NCBI GenBank assembly: GCA_043827405.1
Contig: JBDRPD010000050.1
Coordinates: 156,891-220,890 of the forward strand
Direction of reading: 5' to 3'
DNA: 64,000 nt
Source of the DNA: Elusimicrobiota bacterium
GTDB lineage: Bacteria > Elusimicrobiota > Elusimicrobia > UBA1565
Shown: in pieces, positions 39,809 through 50,395 of the stretch
How the letters are laid out: the number at the start of each line of letters is the position of its first letter
Position numbering within the stretch: position 1 is the first letter of the stretch
Program-made: the position numbers and the translations under genes
The notes under the pieces: model-generated
The model's input: only the letters and a program-made list of their open reading frames with translations
Told to the model about the DNA's origin: nothing
Databases searched by the model: none

Positions 39809-39930
39809 GCGGTCCTCCGGCCCATTTCCTCCGCCCTATGGGCCCAGAGATTTATGGGCCAATTTATGAAGTAAAAACCGTTCTAAATACCCTCTCCGTT
39901 CCGACCGTGTTCGCATATAATCACCTCCAC

Positions 39931-41880
39931 ATGAATTCGGCATGGATGCGGGGCCCCCGGTCCTGCTTATGCATCGTACTGTCGGCCGCCTTGGTGATAA
40001 CTTCGCCGGGCCTATTCTGCTATGAAGCCCTGGGTGCCATGGTGGCCGGAACCTCCGCCGCGGCGGGAGTTTCCGCCGTTCCCGCCGGCGCCGCAGGTGC
40101 GGTGCTGGGCGCCGTCCCGCTCCAGCGGAACATGACGGCGGCGACGCTCAATGCCCTGCAAACGACCAGCGTCCTGCCCGGCCTGGAAACGGTCGCTCCG
40201 GCCATGACCCAGCGGATTCACGGCCTGATCCAGTCATCCGCGCAAACGATCAAGATTGAAAAGGAGCAGGCGCCCGCTCCGCTGCATAAAGCGCAAAAGA
40301 GCGTCGCCGCCGTTTTCAGCACGCTGGGATTTATTAGTTCGGACACAGATAATAAGACCCCCGCGCGGCGCACCCCGGCTCCGCAGCGCTCGCCCTGGAC
40401 GCCGGTCCGGGCGGCCGAGGAGTTCCGCATCCTCTTCGACGGCGGGCGCCGGCGGAAAAACGCCGTCAGCTCCGATGTCCCACAGGGCATCCACAGCCGC
40501 AAGGCCAACGGCGTCCACATCAGCCTGACCGGCCCAGGACTATCTGAAGTCCAAATGCAGGAAGTTCCCGCGCCGGCTGCGGCGCCGAAGACCAGCATCT
40601 GGGATTCCGCCATCGTACGCGTAGGCCTGCCGACCGCGGCGCTGGCCGCGACGGCCCTGCTTTATTCCGCCGATCTGGTGACTACCGGCATCATGGCGGG
40701 GACCTTAATGGTCTCCATCCTGGCGCATGAGACCGCGCATATCCTGGGCCTGCGCATCTGGGGAGACAAGACGCCGGCCAAGATGGGACGCGACTCCCTC
40801 AACCCTCTCGCTCATGCCGACGCGGTGGGCACCATATTAGTCCCGGCAGCGAGCGCGGCGATATCCAACTCCCTAATCGGCGTCCCCATCGTGACGGGCT
40901 GGGCCAAGCCGGTTCCTGTCGAGTTCAACAATCTCAAGAACGTAAAGAAAGACGCCGCCAAGGTCGCCATCATGGGACCCCTGGCCAACCTGGCGCTGGC
41001 GGCGCTAACCGGCACCGCACTCCTGGCTTTGCCGGCCGGCGGCACGGCCGCCCTGGTGCTCTCGACGATGTTTAAGGCGAACCTCGCGCTCGTCCTGTTT
41101 AATCTCATTCCCACGCCGTGGTCGGATGGCGGCAAGGTCCTTATCAGCCTCCTGCCGGAGCGGATCTACTCATGGTGGCGGCATAATCCGCGCATCCCAG
41201 ACGGCTACCAGAACATCTACCAACGCCTCTACGAGGGTCCGTCGCATGTGCTCAGCTCTTTTAATCTCGACTCGCGCGGGCAGATCAACGGCGCAACCCG
41301 GGCCCTGACCTTGGCCGGGATGGGCGCTTTCGTCTATCTCCTTTCGGGGACCATGCTCCACCTGCCCATCATGCTGCTGGCTCTGCCCTGCAACTACGAT
41401 TACTGGTGCATCGCCGAGAAGGTGCGCTCGGAAAAGGCCGTCGGCGAAATGATGGATCTCCTGAGCTCTTGGGGCACGCTCCTGGTGCAGCTCGCTGAAG
41501 ACCATGACGTGGAAAGCGAGGTCAGCGCCAAGGACGCCGAGCTGAACCTGGCGCATGCGATAGACGTCCTCCTCGAGACGCTTATGGCCAAAGAGGAGTT
41601 CCGCAACCTTCCCGACGACGAAAAGATCGAACGCTTCATGGCGGAGTTCCCCGAGTTCGCCGCCCGCGACCTGCGGAACAAGGCATTCACCGAGGACACC
41701 GTCGAGACCATCCTCAAGGTTCTCAACGATGCGCGCAACCAGCCCTTCAAGGACCGCCTCAAGAGCTGGCTCAAGGAGCACGGCATCTTCAAGAAGATGG
41801 CCAGCCCGCACGAAAAGAAGCACTACAAGGACCAGATGGAAGAAGCGAAGAAGGACAAGACGCGCGGCGCCGGCTCCTAA
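39931..41880 (+). CDS. Site-2 protease (M50) with long N-terminal leader and acidic C-terminal domain
   Basis: HETAH, GWAKPVP, GPLAN, FNLIPTPWSDGG. Start uncertain (ORF open from 39838). Confidence 0.88.
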   Translation: MNSAWMRGPRSCLCIVLSAALVITSPGLFCYEALGAMVAGTSAAAGVSAVPAGAAGAVLGAVPLQRNMTAATLNALQTTSVLPGLETVAPAMTQRIHGLIQSSAQTIKIEKEQAPAPLHKAQKSVAAVFSTLGFISSDTDNKTPARRTPAPQRSPWTPVRAAEEFRILFDGGRRRKNAVSSDVPQGIHSRKANGVHISLTGPGLSEVQMQEVPAPAAAPKTSIWDSAIVRVGLPTAALAATALLYSADLVTTGIMAGTLMVSILAHETAHILGLRIWGDKTPAKMGRDSLNPLAHADAVGTILVPAASAAISNSLIGVPIVTGWAKPVPVEFNNLKNVKKDAAKVAIMGPLANLALAALTGTALLALPAGGTAALVLSTMFKANLALVLFNLIPTPWSDGGKVLISLLPERIYSWWRHNPRIPDGYQNIYQRLYEGPSHVLSSFNLDSRGQINGATRALTLAGMGAFVYLLSGTMLHLPIMLLALPCNYDYWCIAEKVRSEKAVGEMMDLLSSWGTLLVQLAEDHDVESEVSAKDAELNLAHAIDVLLETLMAKEEFRNLPDDEKIERFMAEFPEFAARDLRNKAFTEDTVETILKVLNDARNQPFKDRLKSWLKEHGIFKKMASPHEKKHYKDQMEEAKKDKTRGAGS

Positions 41881-42031
41881 CCCGCCCCCTTTTCCCGCAC
41901 GAAACACCGTTGCACACGGGAAAGAAATTCTGAAATCCCCCTTCTAGAGCCAATGAGGCTCCCCCTCCCGGACCTAGGACTCATGCGGCAAAACGCGATC
42001 CGCGGTATCTTAGGGTACGCTAATCGCGCAC

Positions 42032-45000
42032 ATGTCACTCCACATCAAATATACCGCCGCCGCAGTCTGCGCGTCACTCATCCTGACCGCACCCGGCGTC
42101 CCGTGCTACCAGGCCCTAGCCTCGGTCGCCGCCGTATCATCGGCCGGACGCGGCGCGGCGGTCAGCGGTGCGGCGGGAGCGTCGGTCGGCGCGGTGCCGC
42201 ACGGCCTTGCCGGACAGTTGCTTAATCCCGTTCAGGTCGACATCCAGGGCTCGCTCTCAACCGTAGCCAACCTCTCTGTACAGCCGGCGGCGAATATTCC
42301 GATCCCAACCACGATTCCATCGCCGACGCTTAAAGCGGCTCACCAACCGCAGGCCAAGCCCCTTATAAAGGAAAGACTGCCGCAAAAGCTGGGACGCATT
42401 CAAAAGCAGTTCCCCAAAGACAAGAAGAATAAATCAGGGATCCGATCCCGCCTTTTCTTTGACGGCGGACACCTGCTCAAGCGCGGCGGCGCATCGGCCG
42501 TCGCCGGCAAAGCATCCATCACCGCGTCGAGCCTCAATCCCGCCTTTACCGGGACACCCGTGAATAAACCCGCGCTCCCGGCGCCCAGGCGCTCTCGCGC
42601 CAAATCTTCCTGGCTGGTTCCGGCCGCCGACGCGGCCCTGCTCACCGCCGCCGTCATTTTGTGGCAGGCCGATCTGCTGCCGGTCTCGCTAGGCCTGAGC
42701 GCGGCGTTGTTTATGCTCGGCGAGGTCGGCGGCGGTGCTCCCGACCCGCGCGATAAAGTGTTTCGCGGTCAGGAGCTCTCCGGTCCGACCGAGATATGGA
42801 TCAACCTCGACTCGGAGCTCAGCCCCCAGCAGCGCGGAGCCTTCGTCCGCCGCCACGGCCTGTCGGCGGAGGCCGAGCGTGAATGGATCATGAACCACCG
42901 CCTGCGGATCGTCGCCGGCAGCGTCGCTGACGCCGGGTCCATCGTCCGCTCGGTTATCGAAGACGAACGCGTCGACTCGATCGCCGTCCACCAGGAGATT
43001 GAGGAACTTATCCAAGGCGCGGCGCCGGCCGCCCCCCCCGCGCGCTCAGCCTACCGGGCCGGAGCCTCCGACTTCAACGACGGCTCACCCGCCGGCGACA
43101 TTTGGATTTACTTCCGCGAGGGCACCAACCGCGCCGCCATCGAGACCATGCTCGGCGACAGCTACCGCGCCGACTTCCACATGAGCGAGCCCACCCCGCG
43201 CGTCGTCGTGCATGCCGGCGGCTCCGCCGACGACGCCTACCGGCTCGGCGCGCGCATGATCACCAACCCCAACGTCAGCGAGGTCCGCGCCCACATCGGC
43301 GTCGCCTGGCGCCTGCGCACCGACACCCGCGCCGAGATCCTCGCCGACCGGCGCCTCGAGGCGCGGCAGGTGCGCGCGCGCTTTTTATGGGCCGCAGATC
43401 CTGAGGGCGCGCGTGCGGTGTTTTTCGGCGCCCCCTGGCAAAGCTCCAGCCCTGAGACCCTGGACGACGATACCGTGGTCGTAACCGCGACTCTAAACTC
43501 CGACGCCGACATGGCCCGAGCCCTGCAGGACCTCGCAGCGGTAGATTCGATCGACCGCATCTACGCTAATCCCGACGAGGTGCCGACCATTGAAGGTCCC
43601 GCTCCACAACAAAATACCGTTCTCGACAAGCTCACCAGCGAAGGCTACGAGGGCAGCGACCCGCTGCTCTTAAAGGTCCGGCTTTATGAGGAAGTGGCGG
43701 CACGCCAGATCGGCGAAATCGTCGCCCGCTCCCTCGACGATCGGTATCGGCGCTGGGAGTTCGACTACGTCGACGACCGGCGAAACAGCCGCGGCTCGGA
43801 GTTCACTGTCTTCCTGACCAACCTCCACGATGACGCAGCCATGGCTGAAGGCATAATGCTCCTCGCCGCCGAGCAGGAGGTCGCAGAGATCGGCGTGTCG
43901 CCCGAGTATCACGAGGCCGCCCGCGGGGAGGCACCGAAAGCGCCGACCACCCCTGGGAAGTTCTCCACCGCCGACCACGGCAGCGTCGACCCCTTCTTCT
44001 TTCGCTTCCGCATCGCCGAGCACCTAAACCAGGCGCACGCCCACGGGCTCATGGAACGCAGCTTCAAAGATCTCTTCGCCGGCTGGAAGGTGGAAGACGA
44101 GAACGACGGACCCGGCGTCCTGGTCAGCGTCAACATCAAGCATGCGACAGGCGCCGAAACCTTCATCGCCGGGCTGCTCAACCTCGAACGCGAGAAGGGA
44201 GTGTCCGAGATCATCGTCAAGGCCGACATCCTGGACCTGGTGCGTCATGCGCGGCCCGCTCAACCGGCGCCCGCGCCGAGCGGCGCACTAAGCAAGATTC
44301 AAGGCGATCCCCGCCACTACTACGGCATCGGCGGCGGCATCCCCGACGGCCGCGAAGTGAAGGTCTACCTGCGGCCCCGCCCCGGCGGGCCCAGCGCCGA
44401 CGCCTTGGTCGACCAGCTGGGCATCGAGTACGGCAGCATGGGCCATAACGGCAATGCCCCCGAAGAAGACGGCACTGTCGAGGTGAAGATCGACGGAACC
44501 ACGTTCTCGGATCTCGACGAGTTCGCTCGGCAGGTTATTCGTGCCGCCGGGATTGAGGGCGTCGAGCGCATCGTCGTCAGCCCCGAGGTCTTCGTAGAAA
44601 TCCTGCGCCTTGAGGGACAGCCGACCGAAGCGCCCGCCGGCGCGAGCCTATTAGATAAGTTTCAGACCAACCCCGCGGCCGAGAATGGGCCCGATCATTT
44701 GGTGGTTGCCGTCGTCCGGCTGGACGAGGGAGATACCCCCGTCGAGGAGATGGCTGAGATTAAAGGCCTGACCGGCGGTACAGTCGACGGCGTGACGGTG
44801 GCGCGGGAAGGAACCTACAACGGCGTCCACGCTCAATATTCAGAGGTCCATGCCGGCAGCTATTTAGCGGATGAGGAGTTCGCTCGCAAGCTCGCGGCCT
44901 TGGCCTGGAACGATCGGGTGGTGGGCATCGAGGTGCGCACCGACAAGATGGAGGCGGTGCGGCCGATCCTTGAGAAGGCGGCGCTGGCGCAGCAGCACTC

Positions 45001-48000
45001 GCGGCGGAACACCTCAGGCGCATCCCCTGAAGCCAAGATACATGCCAGGCAGGACATGATCGGCGTCGGAAACTTCTGGATCCATTACCGGCCGGGCCTG
45101 ACGCAGGACGAGCTGCGGGCCATACAGGGCCCGTATGTAACCGGCAGCGCCCGCTTCATCACCCTGCAAGGCAAAAGCGGTCCCTTCATGAAGAGCTTGA
45201 TCGAAGCGCCCGATGCGAACGCAGCCGCGGACTTAGCCCACAGGATCGCCGCCGAGCCGGACGTCACGGCGGTGCACCTCCATCCCGATGCCGCCGACCT
45301 TCTCCGCAGCGCGCCGGCGAACATGGAACCCCTCCGCGCTGCGCCGCCGCAGCATGACCGCAAGATCGTCCACGGCGACTTGGCGCCGGACTTCATGAAA
45401 GTCGAGTTCAACGCGGGGACCTCCGACTCCCTCATCGATACAGTCCTCGGCGCCCACGGCTTCGGACGCCTCAACGCCAACCGTAATCCCGCCGACGTCC
45501 GACCCGGCGAGATCGGCAAGATTCTGGCCCTGGCCGCCGAAGCCGTCGTCCATACGATCACGCTCGGGGCCGCCAAGTTCGGTGAGCTCGCCGGCCGCAA
45601 TGTCTTCCGCGCCGCTCCAGCGCCGACCGCCGAAGAGGTTTCCCCGCCGGAGGAAGCTCCTCACGCCGCCGAGACGGAGCCCGAACCCGATCCCGGCCCG
45701 CTGGGCAAGGCCGCGGTCGACGCCTCGGTATTCGAACGCCACGAGCTGCGCGTCATGTTCGCGCCGGGCACGAGCGCGGAGCAGATCGACGCCTTCCTTA
45801 ATGACCATATCCTAAAGAATGCCGGGCTTTACCGCCGACCGGACCCGCTCAGCCTATCGCTCATCTCCCGTGAACCTGCCGCCTCGGCCCGCACCATGCA
45901 GGCCGCCAAACAAAACGCGCAGGTCGCCTCCGTGCTGATGTCGCAGGAGACCTGGGCCGATCTCAACTCACTTAAGGACGAAGTGTTCACGTCGGAGACG
46001 CCAGAGAACGACTTGCGCGCGGTAGAGGAAGAGCGCGGGCTCCTGATCCGCTTTATCGAGCAGGACTCCCAAAAGATACACGAATTCGCTAAGAAGTTCG
46101 ACCTCCGGCTCGCCGCTCCCGACTATCGGGAAAAGGGGCAGCACCTGTATGAGATGCCCGAGTCCTATGACCCGGCCTGGCTTATAGATGCGATGCGGGT
46201 TAATATCGAAAACGGAAACTGGCCGGTAGCCGAAATCTCTCCCTTAATCGAGAACGAAAGCGCACCCATAGAGAAAGCCCCGCCGCCGGCGGCGCGCCGC
46301 GACGCCCATGCCGATTGGATCGAATTTCTCAACACCCGCCCGCTCAACGGCGGCGACAAGACGCTGACCTCCGAACAGGTGCGGGCGCTCTCGGTATTTC
46401 TCAAGCCCGTCGTTCCGCCATCGGGCGTGCGCAAGCACCCGGTCATCGGACGCATGGATGAAATGAAGCGCGCGACCCGCATCCTGACCGCGCCGCGCGG
46501 CGGAATCACCAGCGCCATGCTGGTCGGCCCGGCCGGCACCGGCAAGACGGCGGTGTTTGAAGGCCTGGCCCAGCTGATCGAGGACGCCGAGCATGCCGAC
46601 GCCGTCCGCGTACGCAAGACCGACGGCAGCAGCGACTATCTCCACATAAAACGCCTGCGCGCCCGCTGGTTTGTCGAGCTCGACATCGACCGCCTGCTGA
46701 CCGAGGAAGATCCGGTAAAGACCTTGCTCGCGCTCATCGACATGATCCCGCAGCTCAACAATCCCGACCAGCGCGAGGGCAACAAGGTCATCCTGCTTTT
46801 GGACGAAATCCAGAAGCTGCGCGACAACCCGCAGGGCATCCGCATCATGAACGCCATGAAGCGGCCCATCCGCGACGGCCGTATCGCGGTAGCCGGCACC
46901 ACCACCGACAAGGAGTGGAAGCAGTACTTCGACACCGACGAGGCGCTCAAGAGCCGCTTCGAACTGATCCCGGTCGATGAGCCGGCTCCCGAGGAAACGC
47001 TTGAGATGCTGCGCGGCGCGAAAGCCCATTTCGAGTGGAAGCACGACACACAGATCGACGACGATGCGCTGGAAGCCGCGGCCAAGCTTTCCGAGCAGTT
47101 CATTAAGGAATTCAATAATCCCCGCGCGTCCTTTGACTTCGTAATCCCCGGCGCCGCCGAGCTGGCGCGGCCGGACAACCTGCGCTCGGCCCTGGCCTTT
47201 GATATTCGCGAAGGCTGGCGGCGGCTGACGGCATCGGTAAACACCGCGCGGCAGACACTTATCGACAAGGGCATCGCCTCCTCGCTGGCGCTGCCGGCCG
47301 AGCTCTACAACCGGGTCGCCGGACTCATTAAGGAGATTATCGAAGATTACGAGGCACGCGACGCAGTGCAGGACGGCAAGGGCGCGGTCACCTCCGGAGT
47401 CGTCAAGCGGCGCATCTCCGAGATGACCGGCATCCACGCCGGGCAGCTGACGATGGGAGAAGAGGACACCCAGCGCTACGTCGACATGGAGCAGACGATG
47501 GCTGAGGATGTGGTCAACCAGGACCGCGCACTCGAGGCTCTCGGCCGCGCCATCCGCCGCAACAAGGCCGGCCTCGGCGATCCCAATAAGCCGATGGGTA
47601 AGTTTCTCTTCGTCGGCCCCACCGGTACCGGCAAGACCCATATCGTCAAGCAGCTGGCCAAGTTCCTGTTCGAAGACGAAGAGGCCTATATCCGCTTCGA
47701 CATGACCGAGTTTATGGAACAGCACTCGGTGGCTCGGCTGATCGGCTCGCCGCCCGGCTACGTCGGCTATGAAGAAGCGGGTCAGCTCACCGAAGCGGTG
47801 CGTAAAAAGCCCTACTCGGTAGTGCTCTTCGACGAGATTGAGAAAGCGCATCCCGACGTCTGGAACATTTTCCTGCAGATTCTCGATGACGGACACCTGA
47901 CCGACGGTCATGGCCGCCGGGTGGATTTCAAGAACACGGTCATCATCTTCACCTCAAACATCGGCATGGACGTCGTCGACTCCGACGGCTTCGCCCGCCG

Positions 48001-50395
48001 CATCGCCGAGGCCGAAGAGAAGGGCGACCGGAAGATGGTTGATGAACTGCAGAAGGCATGGGACGAGGACATCGCCACCGCCATTAAGGAAGGCATCAAG
48101 AGCCGGATGCGGCCCGAATTCGTCAACCGCCTCGACCCCGATCCGCGCTCGAAGAGCAAATGGGTACTCTTCAACCGCCTTAACCGGGCGCATGCGCGGC
48201 TGATCACCAAGATCGAGCTCAGAAAGTTCACCCGGCTGCTCGAAGACCGCCACGGCACGAAGCTCGAATACGACAAGGAGGTGATCGACTTCATCTCAGA
48301 GTACGGCTTCTCGCCGGTATACGGCGCGCGGCCGCTTAAGGAAACGATCGAGAAGTTCATCAGCGACACTCTCGCCCTGTGGATCCTCAAGGAAGCGACC
48401 GAGGGCGGCAGCGACGTGCGCGGCGGCAGAATCAAGGTTTCCATAGAGGACGGAAAGCCCAAGTTCACGGTCCTCCCCAAGGAGGAGAAGAAGGTCGAAC
48501 GCACGGCACTTGAAGGACTCGCCCACCGCATGACCGAGGAGGTCATGGCCGTGATCGAGGGGTTGGTGGAGGACTGGCTCGGCGACGGGCAAGGCACGCC
48601 CGAACCGACGGAGAGCTACTTCGACTCAATCCTGCACCAGCTTAAGGGCGATGCGCCCTCCGCCCCCGCGGAAGGGACGCCGACGGCCTTCTATCCCGAT
48701 ACGCCGCTGCCCATGCGGGCGGATGCGGCTTATACGGCGGAGCACAACAATCCCGCCAAGCGCGACCAGGCCATGCGCAAGGCGATCAAAGACGCCGTTG
48801 CCTTAAGTCCCGATCTGCTCGGCGGCGAGGGCTTCCTCAAGCTTTTCGTGCGGCACGCCAAGGCCCGCGCCGGCGCCGGCGAGAAGCCGGTCAGCCTGAA
48901 GCTGCAGCGGGCCGACGGCACGGTCCGCGCGCTCGTTCACGGCGACCATGCGCTTACCGACGATGAGCGGCGTTTCCTGCAGGACCACTTCACCGGAACG
49001 CCGCCGGCCAGCCTGCGCGCGGCGCAGAAAAAGGCGGATCTCCTCGGCGTCGACTCGGAGCGCGAGTTCGACAGCGCCCTGCTCGATCTCTACCGGCGGA
49101 TCGCGACGACGCCCGGAGCGCGTATCGGCTTCGCCTCCGACAGCGCGGGGACCGACTACTGGCTGGAAATCGCGCCGCCGCGGGAATCGATAGCCGCAGC
49201 GGCGGCGCCGAAAAAGCTCACTCCGCACCAGCAGCGTGAACGCGCCAAGGCGAAAAAGCTATTCCTCAAAACGGTCCTATCCAAGAACGACGACGGTCCG
49301 GCCATCAGCATCGCCGCCGCGACCGGCTGGGCCGAGCTCTCCACTCCCGAAGATCTGGCCGAGGTCCGCGGCTGGATCCTGGACAAGAAATGGGCGGCCA
49401 AGGACACCATCAGCGGCCGCCTGACCGGCGACTGGCCGCTCTTGATGACGATGGCGCTGACCATGGAGAAGCACGGCACCGCCGCCGACATCAAGCCGCT
49501 GGAAACCATGCTGCGCGCCTTAACCTCCGGCTCGCACTTCCACCAGCCGGCCAAGACGGCGCTGACCGGTGCCCTGACCGCGGTCCTAACCCGCGCCGGA
49601 TATGAAGAGGTCCTCACCGCCTATGAAAGGTCAAAAGGCGTTGTTAATCATGAGGTCAACCAGGCCGTCCTTCCGGCCCTAGGACAAACAGGGCGCGCTG
49701 ACGACATCGATAAACTCCTCAGCAGCACCGGCGGGATGGACTATCTGCCCAATGCCGAAGGCTTCGCGCACCTAGTCGCGCGCACCGACCCGGACCGGCT
49801 CGCCGCCTTCATGGCCGAGCGCTGGCCCGTAAACTCCGACGGCAAGATTCCCAAAGACCGTCAACCCTGGGATTCACGCACCGTGGCCGAACGCACCGCC
49901 GTACTCAGGATCGTCGCCGCAGGCACGGACAACCCTGAACGCGATCTGGAGATCCTGTGGCGGATCGTCGGGCTCAAGCACGGCTCCGACCGCCCGACTA
50001 CCTATGCCGCCGCCGAAGCCTTCGGCACGGTGGCCGGCCGGCTCGGCGGCGCCGGGGACCTCAAGCAGCGCTTCGCGGACTTTAACAAGACGCATACCAT
50101 GACCAGCAGCGACCGCGACTGGGGAAAACTCCTCGCCTTGCTCCATACCGCCCGCGAGGTCGGAGGCGCCGACGTACTGCCGGCCTTGGAGGAAATTCTC
50201 GCCCGCTCCCCGTCCGGCCTGGACTACAACTACGAGCAGCCCTACTTTGAGACTCCTCTCACTTGGGCCAAGGTCTTAGTGCGCAGCGGGCTGTTTCCCG
50301 CCTACGCAAGGACGCGCCTGCAAAAGATGCTGACCTCGCGCCGGCCGATGGAGACCGCCGCCGCCCTCTACGCCATCGCCTTGGCGCGATCATAA
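42032..50395 (+). CDS. Giant multidomain Clp/Hsp100 AAA+ ATPase (2787 aa)
   Basis: NBD1 GPAGTGKT / LLDE. NBD2 GPTGTGKT, RLIGSPPGYVGY, LFDEIEKAH, YGARPL. Long extensions on both sides. Confidence 0.92.
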   Translation: MSLHIKYTAAAVCASLILTAPGVPCYQALASVAAVSSAGRGAAVSGAAGASVGAVPHGLAGQLLNPVQVDIQGSLSTVANLSVQPAANIPIPTTIPSPTLKAAHQPQAKPLIKERLPQKLGRIQKQFPKDKKNKSGIRSRLFFDGGHLLKRGGASAVAGKASITASSLNPAFTGTPVNKPALPAPRRSRAKSSWLVPAADAALLTAAVILWQADLLPVSLGLSAALFMLGEVGGGAPDPRDKVFRGQELSGPTEIWINLDSELSPQQRGAFVRRHGLSAEAEREWIMNHRLRIVAGSVADAGSIVRSVIEDERVDSIAVHQEIEELIQGAAPAAPPARSAYRAGASDFNDGSPAGDIWIYFREGTNRAAIETMLGDSYRADFHMSEPTPRVVVHAGGSADDAYRLGARMITNPNVSEVRAHIGVAWRLRTDTRAEILADRRLEARQVRARFLWAADPEGARAVFFGAPWQSSSPETLDDDTVVVTATLNSDADMARALQDLAAVDSIDRIYANPDEVPTIEGPAPQQNTVLDKLTSEGYEGSDPLLLKVRLYEEVAARQIGEIVARSLDDRYRRWEFDYVDDRRNSRGSEFTVFLTNLHDDAAMAEGIMLLAAEQEVAEIGVSPEYHEAARGEAPKAPTTPGKFSTADHGSVDPFFFRFRIAEHLNQAHAHGLMERSFKDLFAGWKVEDENDGPGVLVSVNIKHATGAETFIAGLLNLEREKGVSEIIVKADILDLVRHARPAQPAPAPSGALSKIQGDPRHYYGIGGGIPDGREVKVYLRPRPGGPSADALVDQLGIEYGSMGHNGNAPEEDGTVEVKIDGTTFSDLDEFARQVIRAAGIEGVERIVVSPEVFVEILRLEGQPTEAPAGASLLDKFQTNPAAENGPDHLVVAVVRLDEGDTPVEEMAEIKGLTGGTVDGVTVAREGTYNGVHAQYSEVHAGSYLADEEFARKLAALAWNDRVVGIEVRTDKMEAVRPILEKAALAQQHSRRNTSGASPEAKIHARQDMIGVGNFWIHYRPGLTQDELRAIQGPYVTGSARFITLQGKSGPFMKSLIEAPDANAAADLAHRIAAEPDVTAVHLHPDAADLLRSAPANMEPLRAAPPQHDRKIVHGDLAPDFMKVEFNAGTSDSLIDTVLGAHGFGRLNANRNPADVRPGEIGKILALAAEAVVHTITLGAAKFGELAGRNVFRAAPAPTAEEVSPPEEAPHAAETEPEPDPGPLGKAAVDASVFERHELRVMFAPGTSAEQIDAFLNDHILKNAGLYRRPDPLSLSLISREPAASARTMQAAKQNAQVASVLMSQETWADLNSLKDEVFTSETPENDLRAVEEERGLLIRFIEQDSQKIHEFAKKFDLRLAAPDYREKGQHLYEMPESYDPAWLIDAMRVNIENGNWPVAEISPLIENESAPIEKAPPPAARRDAHADWIEFLNTRPLNGGDKTLTSEQVRALSVFLKPVVPPSGVRKHPVIGRMDEMKRATRILTAPRGGITSAMLVGPAGTGKTAVFEGLAQLIEDAEHADAVRVRKTDGSSDYLHIKRLRARWFVELDIDRLLTEEDPVKTLLALIDMIPQLNNPDQREGNKVILLLDEIQKLRDNPQGIRIMNAMKRPIRDGRIAVAGTTTDKEWKQYFDTDEALKSRFELIPVDEPAPEETLEMLRGAKAHFEWKHDTQIDDDALEAAAKLSEQFIKEFNNPRASFDFVIPGAAELARPDNLRSALAFDIREGWRRLTASVNTARQTLIDKGIASSLALPAELYNRVAGLIKEIIEDYEARDAVQDGKGAVTSGVVKRRISEMTGIHAGQLTMGEEDTQRYVDMEQTMAEDVVNQDRALEALGRAIRRNKAGLGDPNKPMGKFLFVGPTGTGKTHIVKQLAKFLFEDEEAYIRFDMTEFMEQHSVARLIGSPPGYVGYEEAGQLTEAVRKKPYSVVLFDEIEKAHPDVWNIFLQILDDGHLTDGHGRRVDFKNTVIIFTSNIGMDVVDSDGFARRIAEAEEKGDRKMVDELQKAWDEDIATAIKEGIKSRMRPEFVNRLDPDPRSKSKWVLFNRLNRAHARLITKIELRKFTRLLEDRHGTKLEYDKEVIDFISEYGFSPVYGARPLKETIEKFISDTLALWILKEATEGGSDVRGGRIKVSIEDGKPKFTVLPKEEKKVERTALEGLAHRMTEEVMAVIEGLVEDWLGDGQGTPEPTESYFDSILHQLKGDAPSAPAEGTPTAFYPDTPLPMRADAAYTAEHNNPAKRDQAMRKAIKDAVALSPDLLGGEGFLKLFVRHAKARAGAGEKPVSLKLQRADGTVRALVHGDHALTDDERRFLQDHFTGTPPASLRAAQKKADLLGVDSEREFDSALLDLYRRIATTPGARIGFASDSAGTDYWLEIAPPRESIAAAAAPKKLTPHQQRERAKAKKLFLKTVLSKNDDGPAISIAAATGWAELSTPEDLAEVRGWILDKKWAAKDTISGRLTGDWPLLMTMALTMEKHGTAADIKPLETMLRALTSGSHFHQPAKTALTGALTAVLTRAGYEEVLTAYERSKGVVNHEVNQAVLPALGQTGRADDIDKLLSSTGGMDYLPNAEGFAHLVARTDPDRLAAFMAERWPVNSDGKIPKDRQPWDSRTVAERTAVLRIVAAGTDNPERDLEILWRIVGLKHGSDRPTTYAAAEAFGTVAGRLGGAGDLKQRFADFNKTHTMTSSDRDWGKLLALLHTAREVGGADVLPALEEILARSPSGLDYNYEQPYFETPLTWAKVLVRSGLFPAYARTRLQKMLTSRRPMETAAALYAIALARS

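Follow-up and report, generated by a model that had tools for sequence, protein, structure and literature searches.

A leader sequence of about 150–175 residues heads 66 otherwise diverse proteins in the genome of an Elusimicrobiota bacterium (GenBank assembly GCA_043827405.1), including the products of two neighboring genes on contig JBDRPD010000050.1, namely, a site-2 protease (S2P) and a ClpB/ClpC-like protein with two AAA+ modules (Clp). Both genes lie in the 64,000-nucleotide stretch that was analyzed (positions 156,891 to 220,890 of the forward strand), referred to here as the window, to which all coordinates given without a contig label refer. The leader is real, lineage-wide and unexplained by known families, and likely marks an undescribed route by which cytoplasmic-type enzymes and transporters are sent out of the producing cell.

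Identification of the leader family

The N-termini of the window S2P and Clp proteins share 30% identity over 256 columns, with a Smith-Waterman score of 166, as compared with 42±7 (maximum 74) in 1000 shuffles. As such, the proposal of a first-pass annotation that the two genes carry the same leader was borne out, as was the presence of the motifs quoted there, namely, TSPGLFCYEAL (residue 24), GAAGAVLGAVP (residue 53) and FDGG (residue 169) in S2P, and TAPGVPCYQAL (residue 19), GAAGASVGAVP (residue 46) and FDGG (residue 143) in Clp. At the DNA level, no similarity between the two leaders is left. Of the roughly 200 residues originally assigned to the leader, the generic part (about 150–175 residues) is indeed shared; the final P-A-P..K-S-W motif and the hydrophobic segment that follows it are specific to the S2P family and lie outside the generic leader.

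A hidden Markov model (HMM) iterated from the two window leaders over the first 200 residues of 10,247 stop-to-stop open reading frames (ORFs) yielded 71 matches at E < 0.005, with reversed decoys giving none at that level and three below 0.1; convergence was incomplete. Before counting, L043 and L059 were dropped by eye because their post-signal region differs, as were L066 and L068, which share the signal alone, one internal match and five weaker candidates (L069-L073), and 66 members were kept. The leader is thus far from confined to the two window genes and, as had been anticipated, precedes many different C-terminal cargoes; beyond this genome, it was matched in 36 of 120 further genomes from the class. 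The majority of members are 300-1500 residues long and together they represent some 5% of the coding capacity of the genome (64,312 residues, assuming 90% of the genome to be coding).

The earlier view that the leader is not a named domain also stood. None of 81 leaders matched Pfam at E 0.01, while NCBIfam returned three chance matches (E ~0.1) for one window leader and none for the other. Two weak partial matches to 'Tri1' in the PDB (E 0.009 and 0.02) were set aside as reflecting Ala/Gly composition, and the ESM Atlas offered no usable match for the leader.

Anatomy of the leader

The leader opens with a Sec/signal peptidase I (SPase I)-type signal peptide, which is followed by an acid-poor stretch rich in Gly, Ala and Pro, then by a disordered linker and, finally, by a short island bearing FDG (or ILTG). 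Lys or Arg occurs within the first 14 residues of 66/66 members, forming a basic n-region, and A-x-A within residues 15-42 of 60/66, a lenient test in so Ala-rich a context. The more stringent [ASVL]-x-A-Q is seen in 21 of 29 leaders from relatives and in 16 of 19 S2P orthologues, as compared with 46 of 200 ordinary signal-like proteins of this genome. Neither a twin-arginine (Tat) signal (RRxFL) nor a lipobox cysteine pattern was detected in any of the 66 members. Three S26 peptidases, as well as SecA, SecY and YidC, are encoded in the genome.

The post-signal stretch holds the GAAGA and L..LP islands, and Asp and Glu account for only 2.9% of residues 36-100 in the leaders, as opposed to 12.1% in 200 ordinary signal-like proteins. 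A second insertable helix was not detected here, since the best 19-residue segment up to residue 150 averages 8.0 kcal/mol, as compared with a single-anchor median of 1.5, and reaches 4 or less in 1/66 members, on a position-independent scale. A third island lies near residues 140-180. Strict FDG occurs in 23 of 65 members (1.3 in shuffles; 47/1430 in the background), an ILTG-like variant was recognized by eye in about 10 further members, and FD[GNA] is retained in 22 of 24 S2P orthologues despite diverged linkers. A leader model built from alignment A3 (predicted local distance difference test score, pLDDT, 64; predicted template modeling score, pTM, 0.27) contains two N-terminal helices (with helix 3-19 being predicted), followed by coil. 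A 'PG..aromatic' subtype of the signal, to which the motif first noticed in the window pair belongs, is enriched on polytopic cargo (17/25 vs. 11/40; p 0.002), the pattern having been picked post hoc and the paralogues not being independent. No shared C-terminal motif was apparent by eye in the last 40 residues of the 66 members.

Two groups of proteins resemble members in part. Those encoded at C52:49895-54775 and C53:145510-148092 are large, unannotated or glycoside-hydrolase-like, and present a 'PG' signal peptide with no GAAGA stretch. L070 and L071 (C23:17656-18219 and C91:37985-38617) are short and cysteine-free, resemble a leader with hardly any cargo, are each preceded by two copies of the promoter motif described below, and are possible chaperones, decoys or remnants.

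Cargo of the leader

A Pfam match was obtained for 42 of the 66 members. The enzymes identified include PPK2, adenylate kinase (ADK), glycogen synthase (GlgA), two amylases, uridine kinase (Udk) together with cytidine deaminase (Cdd), and RNase II/R (RNB), while proteases of the S8, S41, HtrA, M3, M28, M48, M50 and Rce1 types and transporters of the MFS, SDF, ABC and MscS types are also represented. Further cargo comprises two Clp proteins plus the fusion considered below, LonB, MoxR, VWA/DUF58, HD domains, a nucleotidyltransferase, Fic, ATP-grasp, phospholipase D (PLD) and endonucleases. ADK, PPK2, GlgA, Clp, RNB, Udk, Cdd, MoxR, S2P, ABC, SDF and MscS are also encoded as housekeeping copies that lack the leader; blastp revealed no leaderless paralogue of LonB, S41, M28, EEP or Fic. 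No hydrophobic segment is found past residue 60 in 28 of the 66 members, including ADK, PPK2, GlgA, LonB and RNB. Catalytic motifs were located in ADK, PPK2, GlgA, RNB, MoxR, Clp, HD-GYP, PLD and M3, although the patterns used missed the Walker A motifs of LonB and Udk and the Fic motif. In another genome (G162), the leader heads a PspA/IM30 (ESCRT-III-like) domain (L160), PspA/IM30 being a membrane-remodeling protein of the cytoplasmic face.

Cysteine depletion

Beyond residue 45, the 66 members contain only 16 cysteines in 61,342 residues (0.026%), and 56 of them contain none. By contrast, cysteine content is 1.16% in 740 cytoplasmic-like proteins, 0.59% in 252 signal-bearing proteins and 0.90% in 229 membrane proteins, these being crude ORF classes of at least 300 residues. 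The same difference is seen when matching domains with and without the leader are paired (GlgA, 1 vs. 10 cysteines; ADK, 0 vs. 6) and extends to the membrane helices of members, where one cysteine is found in 3,591 residues, as compared with 62 expected. Several of the surviving cysteines lie in catalytic or conserved motifs. In an independent check on 29 proteins chosen by leader alone from four other genomes, 14 cysteines were counted in 17,247 residues. Three DsbA-family genes are present in the genome.

The S2P and Clp genes of the window

The features of the two window genes, all on the + strand, are as follows.

39839..39862, +, two copies of the promoter motif (TGGGCCCA, TGGGCCAA) upstream of S2P, from sequence and motif enrichment
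39916..39921, +, TATAAT, 9 nt ahead of ATG 39931, putative promoter element
39931..41880, +, leader-bearing S2P gene (M50; 649 residues), N-terminal half of an order-wide S2P–Clp fusion
39931..40035, +, predicted Sec/SPase I signal peptide of S2P, 'PG..aromatic' subtype (TSPGLFCYEALG), from sequence and family statistics, with putative cleavage
40087..40179, +, acid-poor Gly/Ala/Ser/Pro segment of the S2P leader, from the GAAGA island to the SVLP island
40435..40446, +, FDGG island of the S2P leader, residues 169-172
40612..40740, +, two-helix membrane hairpin of S2P that closes with the HETAH zinc motif, the extent of the helices being a hydropathy-based estimate
41389..41409, +, conserved C-x5-C pair, the sole cysteines of mature S2P, from orthologue comparison
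42032..50395, +, leader-bearing ClpB/ClpC-like double AAA+ gene (2787 residues), C-terminal half of the fusion, no cysteine after residue 45
42032..42121, +, predicted Sec/SPase I signal peptide of Clp (TAPGVPCYQALA), with putative cleavage
42167..42199, +, GAAGASVGAVP island of the Clp leader
42458..42469, +, FDGG island of the Clp leader, residues 143-146
42569..42718, +, S2P-derived stub with a membrane hairpin and no HExxH, likely the remnant of a duplicated S2P 5' end
46460..48436, +, two AAA+ modules of Clp with intact Walker A/B and GYVG pore loop

The S2P ORF (ATG 39931, stop 41880) contains both motifs of M50 site-2 proteases, HExxH (HETAH, residue 266) and NxxPxxxxDG (NLIPTPWSDG, residue 391), with PF02163 being matched at E 1.8e-5, just under the cut-off. 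A single-sequence AlphaFold model of this protein reached a pLDDT of 39, too low to be of use. The Clp ORF (ATG 42032, stop 50395) displays the features of ClpA/B/C-class Hsp100 proteins, namely, two AAA+ modules, Walker A/B (Walker A at residues 1499 and 1862), a GYVG pore loop (GYVGY, residue 1909) and a D2-small domain.

Although initially taken as unrelated enzymes, the two proteins are the split halves of an S2P–Clp fusion. In each of 12 relatives' loci chosen for full-length reading, S2P and Clp form a single ORF, and the S2P core was matched in 51 of 101 genomes from the order, usually as part of an ORF of 1,800-3,400 residues where contigs permit. Indeed, a fused leader–S2P–Clp ORF exists in the same genome, spanning a unique exact 141-nt overlap of contigs C30 and C43, with the joined frame being open for at least 2310 residues. 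The C30 paralogue is 49% identical to the window S2P over 663 residues, and the C43 ORF 47-56% identical to the window Clp. Named homologues belong to Elusimicrobiota.

The Clp half probably acquired its leader via duplication of the S2P 5' end, because Clp residues 179-232 match S2P-family hairpins best, the top 12 of all targets in pairwise alignment being S2P-family proteins or hairpins. This stub scored 69 against the fused paralogue (shuffles 25±4.6) and only 48 against the window's own S2P, inside the shuffle range (28±5; maximum 55). The stub, although recognized by pairwise alignment, was missed by an HMM built on the S2P hairpin.

Additional features of these proteins were noted. The C-x5-C pair directly follows the last S2P helix and is kept in all orthologues read, which are otherwise cysteine-free, although some contain an additional C-x4-C pair within the linker. 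In Clp, the roughly 1200 residues that link the stub to the AAA modules (42750-46350) are without a Pfam match and vary in length among orthologues; by eye, this region gives the impression of degenerate repeats, although self-BLAST found none.

Taxonomic distribution

When 1.84 billion representatives were searched with a 30-row leader model, 57 proteins were retrieved, many from this genome; three of 10 proteins looked up bear an organism name, in each case Elusimicrobiota. An early scan of the phylum with the same, too insensitive, model gave 4/151 genomes. With an 81-row model, for which only 29 candidates were scored per genome and which included sequences from families f1-f3, the 36 positive genomes of the class fall into families f1 (3/3), f3 (20/23), f8 (6/7), f35 (2/2), f37 (2/2), f36 (1/1), f30 (1/1) and f10 (1/12), with no leader being detected by this model in f2, f4, f5, f6, f7, f9, f31 or f38.

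The small genomes of family f4 encode giant signal-peptide proteins of 1562-2741 residues with 0-7 cysteines (L148:2796-11018, L151:3659-13532 and L152:7415-13501). Four such cysteine-poor giants were identified in this family, with three MFS matches and a different, charged N-terminal module; these possibly follow the same principle under another leader.

A promoter motif shared by members

Repeats of [AT]GGNCC[ACT][AT] precede members, mostly 50-110 nt ahead of the start codon. At least two copies are found upstream of 24 of the 66 members, as compared with 15 of 290 controls and about one in shuffles. As the pattern had been derived from the members themselves, it was checked on other loci, where it was found at 14 of 20 orthologue loci (0.4 in shuffles) and at 10 of 29 relatives' loci (0.55 in shuffles). 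In this respect, the members look co-regulated. Two copies lie upstream of the window S2P; a single degenerate copy only is associated with Clp. Judging from sequence, the TATAAT ahead of the S2P start codon likely serves as the -10 element of a transcript whose 5' leader is very short or absent; a -10-like hexamer falls in the last 20 nt before the start of 38 of 66 members, as compared with 273 of 1430 background genes.

Three copies of the motif also precede C1:73787, a gene of a Tad-minor-pilin operon comprising genes encoding TadG/TadE-like, FtsH-like and paralogous Gly-rich membrane proteins and continuing to two giant genes, one of which encodes a member of 5,431 residues.

Membrane topology of transporter cargo

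In helices 1-6 of seven leader-bearing MFS domains, Lys and Arg account for 83 of 460 inside and 5 of 306 outside residues, corresponding to the canonical N-in orientation also seen in 12 leaderless MFS controls (130/766 inside; 33/525 outside). This bias makes N-out seating in the membrane of the donor, i.e., the producing cell, impossible. A signal predicting N-out thus precedes N-in domains, such that either the signal goes unused or the final membrane is not the donor inner membrane; the loss of cysteine within helices favors the latter.

Candidate export machinery

Type IV filament systems are expanded in this genome, with three secretins, eight assembly-type and about nine PilT-type ATPases, a Tad locus and four TadG-like genes. 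The Tad core (C83:127493-134562) comprises genes for TadE, RcpC, a secretin, a CpaF-type ATPase and TadB/C-type proteins. As such, the Tad/type IV filament system is a candidate for moving leader cargo. The TadG-like gene tracks the families in which the leader occurs but also covers f2, f4 and f5, with RcpC being wider still. Single markers of the type III, IV and VI secretion systems (PF00771 SctV/FlhA, PF03135 VirB4 and PF05591 TssB, respectively) were not found in this 98% complete genome. For TpsB (PF03865), a single match fell below the cut-off in a search whose sensitivity is unproven, given that the control matched 0/14 genomes.

A second SecY was rejected as a dedicated translocon, since other leader-rich genomes contain one full SecY; one SecA is present. 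This divergent copy (L153; C66:14697-15962) is isolated and 33% identical to the ribosomal-operon copy, with a comparable gene being clearly evident only in G166 among 120 genomes.

Possible destinations of leader-bearing proteins

The suggestion of the first-pass annotation that the leader is a lineage-specific sorting or secretion tag fared well in part, in that a dedicated route out of the cytoplasm is supported by the diverse cargo, the 40-fold loss of cysteine and the promoter motif. This support does not extend to the leader as address, nor to a destination or a machine. The chances are about even that export occurs in two steps, with the cargo being delivered to another cell. The predicted Sec/SPase I signal would take the whole chain out of the cytoplasm and would be cleaved, following which the acid-poor stretch and the FDG/ILTG island, acting as a tag, could route the unfolded chain to a second translocation step. 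That step would be served by the putative Tad/type IV filament machine and would likely end in another cell, perhaps prey or host. Membrane helices would have to escape the lateral gate of the donor's Sec. In the recipient, ATP and substrates would be available to the soluble cargo (adenylate kinase, PPK2, glycogen synthase, uridine kinase, RNase, nucleases, and Clp/Lon and other proteases), while membrane cargo (MFS, ABC, the dicarboxylate symporter, MscS and intramembrane proteases) could insert from the cytoplasmic side in its normal orientation and bring nutrients to the donor. The nucleases, phospholipase D and broad proteases among the cargo were counted in favor of export.

Only tentatively can a fuller scenario be offered, whereby a contact-dependent predator or parasite exports a 65-protein 'foreign-cytoplasm toolkit' through a Tad-type machine, using Sec and the tag, and installs in its partner enzymes as well as entire polytopic transporters and S2P–Clp, the last serving as a membrane-remodeling unfoldase. 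The findings point to a predatory or parasitic lifestyle in a poorly known phylum. If true, the leader would be the first bacterial address to carry twelve-helix membrane proteins beyond the donor membrane and into another cell, and the partner would be turned into a nutrient exporter.

Several observations weigh against delivery to another cell. The helices of leader-bearing MFS proteins are no less hydrophobic than those of the 12 leaderless ones (p 0.65 and 0.23), such that ordinary Sec would be expected to let them pass into the membrane of the donor itself and the export model needs a bypass. An automatic first-helix charge test across the family gave 20 vs. 10 (p 0.10), with the weaker first hairpin helix often being missed. 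The post-signal stretch exceeds random soluble windows in hydrophobicity (8.0 vs. a median of 10.8 kcal/mol), and the strict FDG is limited to the 23 members noted above. Ordinary signal-bearing proteins show no even-cysteine bias (83/196 even), which speaks against simply ascribing the cysteine loss to disulphides; periplasmic disulphide formation is therefore not established in this organism, despite the three DsbA-family genes. Tad markers are more widespread than is the leader (RcpC, 91/121 genomes; TadG-like, 66/121 genomes, including all 26 of family f4, in which the leader model matched nothing), so that their co-occurrence may only reflect kinship. Finally, a search for an ATP/ADP translocase gave weak partial matches to MFS-like ORFs only, and this candidate was rejected.

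An unlikely alternative is that the cargo remains with its producer, being directed by Sec to a second compartment, i.e., an ATP-containing periplasm, a vesicle or a second membrane, where PPK2 and ADK regenerate ATP from polyphosphate and transporters turn their cytoplasmic-type face towards this space. Signal peptides, cysteine loss and N-in bias are explained equally well in this manner, the set includes the ATP-regenerating pair and quality-control proteases, and periplasm-type cargo (S41, HtrA, subtilases and endonuclease I) bears the same leader. The periplasm, however, is normally without RNA, nucleosides, ADP-glucose and c-di-GMP, such that the substrates of RNase II/R, uridine kinase, cytidine deaminase, glycogen synthase and HD-GYP would be missing, and no cargo that makes ADP-glucose was recognized among the 42 annotated members. 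Moreover, since the charge bias of the MFS domains excludes inverted insertion into the donor inner membrane, a second membrane containing helical proteins would be required.

It is less likely still that the leader is a signal-like tether that holds the cargo in the cytoplasm. No new translocator would then be needed, a tether would be compatible with the use of ATP and with the N-in bias seen in MFS, S2P and others, and the normal helix hydrophobicity and mildly hydrophobic post-signal stretch would be in keeping. A tether, however, leaves the 40-fold loss of cysteine unexplained, above all that within membrane helices, and lacks a return helix of insertable hydrophobicity; nor would one expect a positively charged n-region or conservation of the A-x-A(-Q) site. 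Moreover, the cell's own cytoplasm would contain endonuclease I, phospholipase D and subtilases, housekeeping enzymes would be duplicated in the same place, and polytopic transporters require no tether.

That the leader is simply a plain signal peptide and a fast-evolving linker of an ordinary secretome, dispersed through gene duplication and shuffling and playing no part in sorting once past Sec, agrees with the short, degenerate islands, the predicted coil of the linker and the probable origin of the window Clp leader by copying of its neighbor's N-terminus, but is very improbable, given that ordinary signal-bearing proteins contain 20-fold more cysteine and four times the acidic residues in positions 36-100, that 22 of 24 S2P orthologues retain FDG despite divergence of the linker, and that ATP-dependent enzymes and N-in transporters are left unexplained.

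Signal peptides on ATP-dependent enzymes and N-in transporters lie beyond current sorting rules, and delivery to another cell, a second compartment or a tether would each, if true, extend the rules of bacterial protein sorting.

Comparison with known systems

No description of the leader was found in the literature searched, from which subscription papers and bioRxiv supplements were left out, and such supplements might list motifs of this kind. Nor is the leader described in the accessible parts of PMC11573180, 10.1101/2022.07.08.499144 and PMC13755416. A complete Elusimicrobiota genome from an amoeba culture has been reported (PMC9476967).

The leader resembles Sec/SPase I signals, including those of the Bacteroidetes Q-rule, as presented in the accessible portions of PMC5837995, in its basic n-region, short hydrophobic core, A-x-A and, in relatives, frequent Gln at +1, but adds a conserved tag of 120-150 residues and is borne by cytoplasmic-type or N-in polytopic cargo. 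Glutaminyl cyclase (PF05096) was not found in this genome (1 of 5 genomes searched).

In two-partner secretion and contact-dependent inhibition (TpsA–TpsB), a Sec signal and an N-terminal targeting region direct cysteine-poor cargo that crosses the periplasm unfolded and reaches neighboring cells. The leader system shares the Sec signal with an N-terminal region, the cysteine-poor cargo and, as proposed here, delivery to neighboring cells, but differs in that none of the 81 leaders matches a TPS domain, coil rather than beta-helix is predicted, no TpsB exceeded the cut-off, and dozens of unlinked cargoes, including polytopic membrane proteins, are involved. In Plasmodium PEXEL/PTEX export and in complex-plastid leaders, a signal peptide is likewise followed by an acid-poor targeting stretch, and passage across a second membrane takes place in the unfolded state for soluble and membrane proteins alike, with PTEX including a ClpB-type unfoldase. 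These systems are eukaryotic, and their likeness to the Elusimicrobiota leader is one of analogy only. S2P–Clp itself recalls FtsH, a membrane zinc protease with an AAA+ unfoldase, in joining a membrane zinc protease to an ATP-driven unfoldase. FtsH, however, is an M41 protease with a single AAA module, as opposed to an M50 intramembrane protease with a double-ring Clp and a leader, divided between two genes in the window.

Giant proteins of Omnitrophota also combine a signal peptide with multiple domains, including metabolic enzymes and membrane helices, according to the accessible parts of three reports (West-Roberts 2023, 10.1101/2023.11.21.568195; 10.64898/2026.06.07.730766; PMC10066038). 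As for the leader-bearing proteins, predicted localization is puzzling, Tad and type II secretion genes are nearby and predation has been proposed; that system belongs to another phylum, and no shared leader motif is described in those passages. The words 'cysteine' and 'Elusimicrob' do not appear in the accessible text of 10.64898/2026.06.07.730766. One gene set is now identified by three sequence markers, namely, its leader, its low cysteine content and its promoter motif, which make the puzzle of signal-bearing giant metabolic proteins in Elusimicrobiota and Omnitrophota testable.

The Kil system of Myxococcus, as portrayed in the available passages of PMC12075869, similarly contains a Tad core and several variable minor-pilin clusters and is proposed to deliver effectors upon contact. 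Kil, however, works with a needleless type III secretion system, of which no marker was found in the present genome, and no N-terminal tag shared by its cargo is mentioned in these passages; the link to the leader is only circumstantial.

In the operon that contains C1:73787, which extends from C1:70181-78650 to C22:73168-51959 when the two contigs are joined (L077 and L076), genes encoding TadG-like, TadE and FtsH-like proteins are accompanied by about eight paralogous genes. The products of the latter present a charged N-terminus ending in KKG(G/A) and a Gly/Ala-rich hydrophobic stretch, have no Pfam match and may be long pilin-like tip proteins. At the end of the operon, signal-peptide proteins of 1083 and 3018 residues adjoin the 5431-residue member. 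Three further TadG-like paralogues (C108:76890, C28:2838 and C91:34815) each lie beside similar Gly-rich membrane proteins, an arrangement reminiscent of Kil in Myxococcus, with its several tip clusters.

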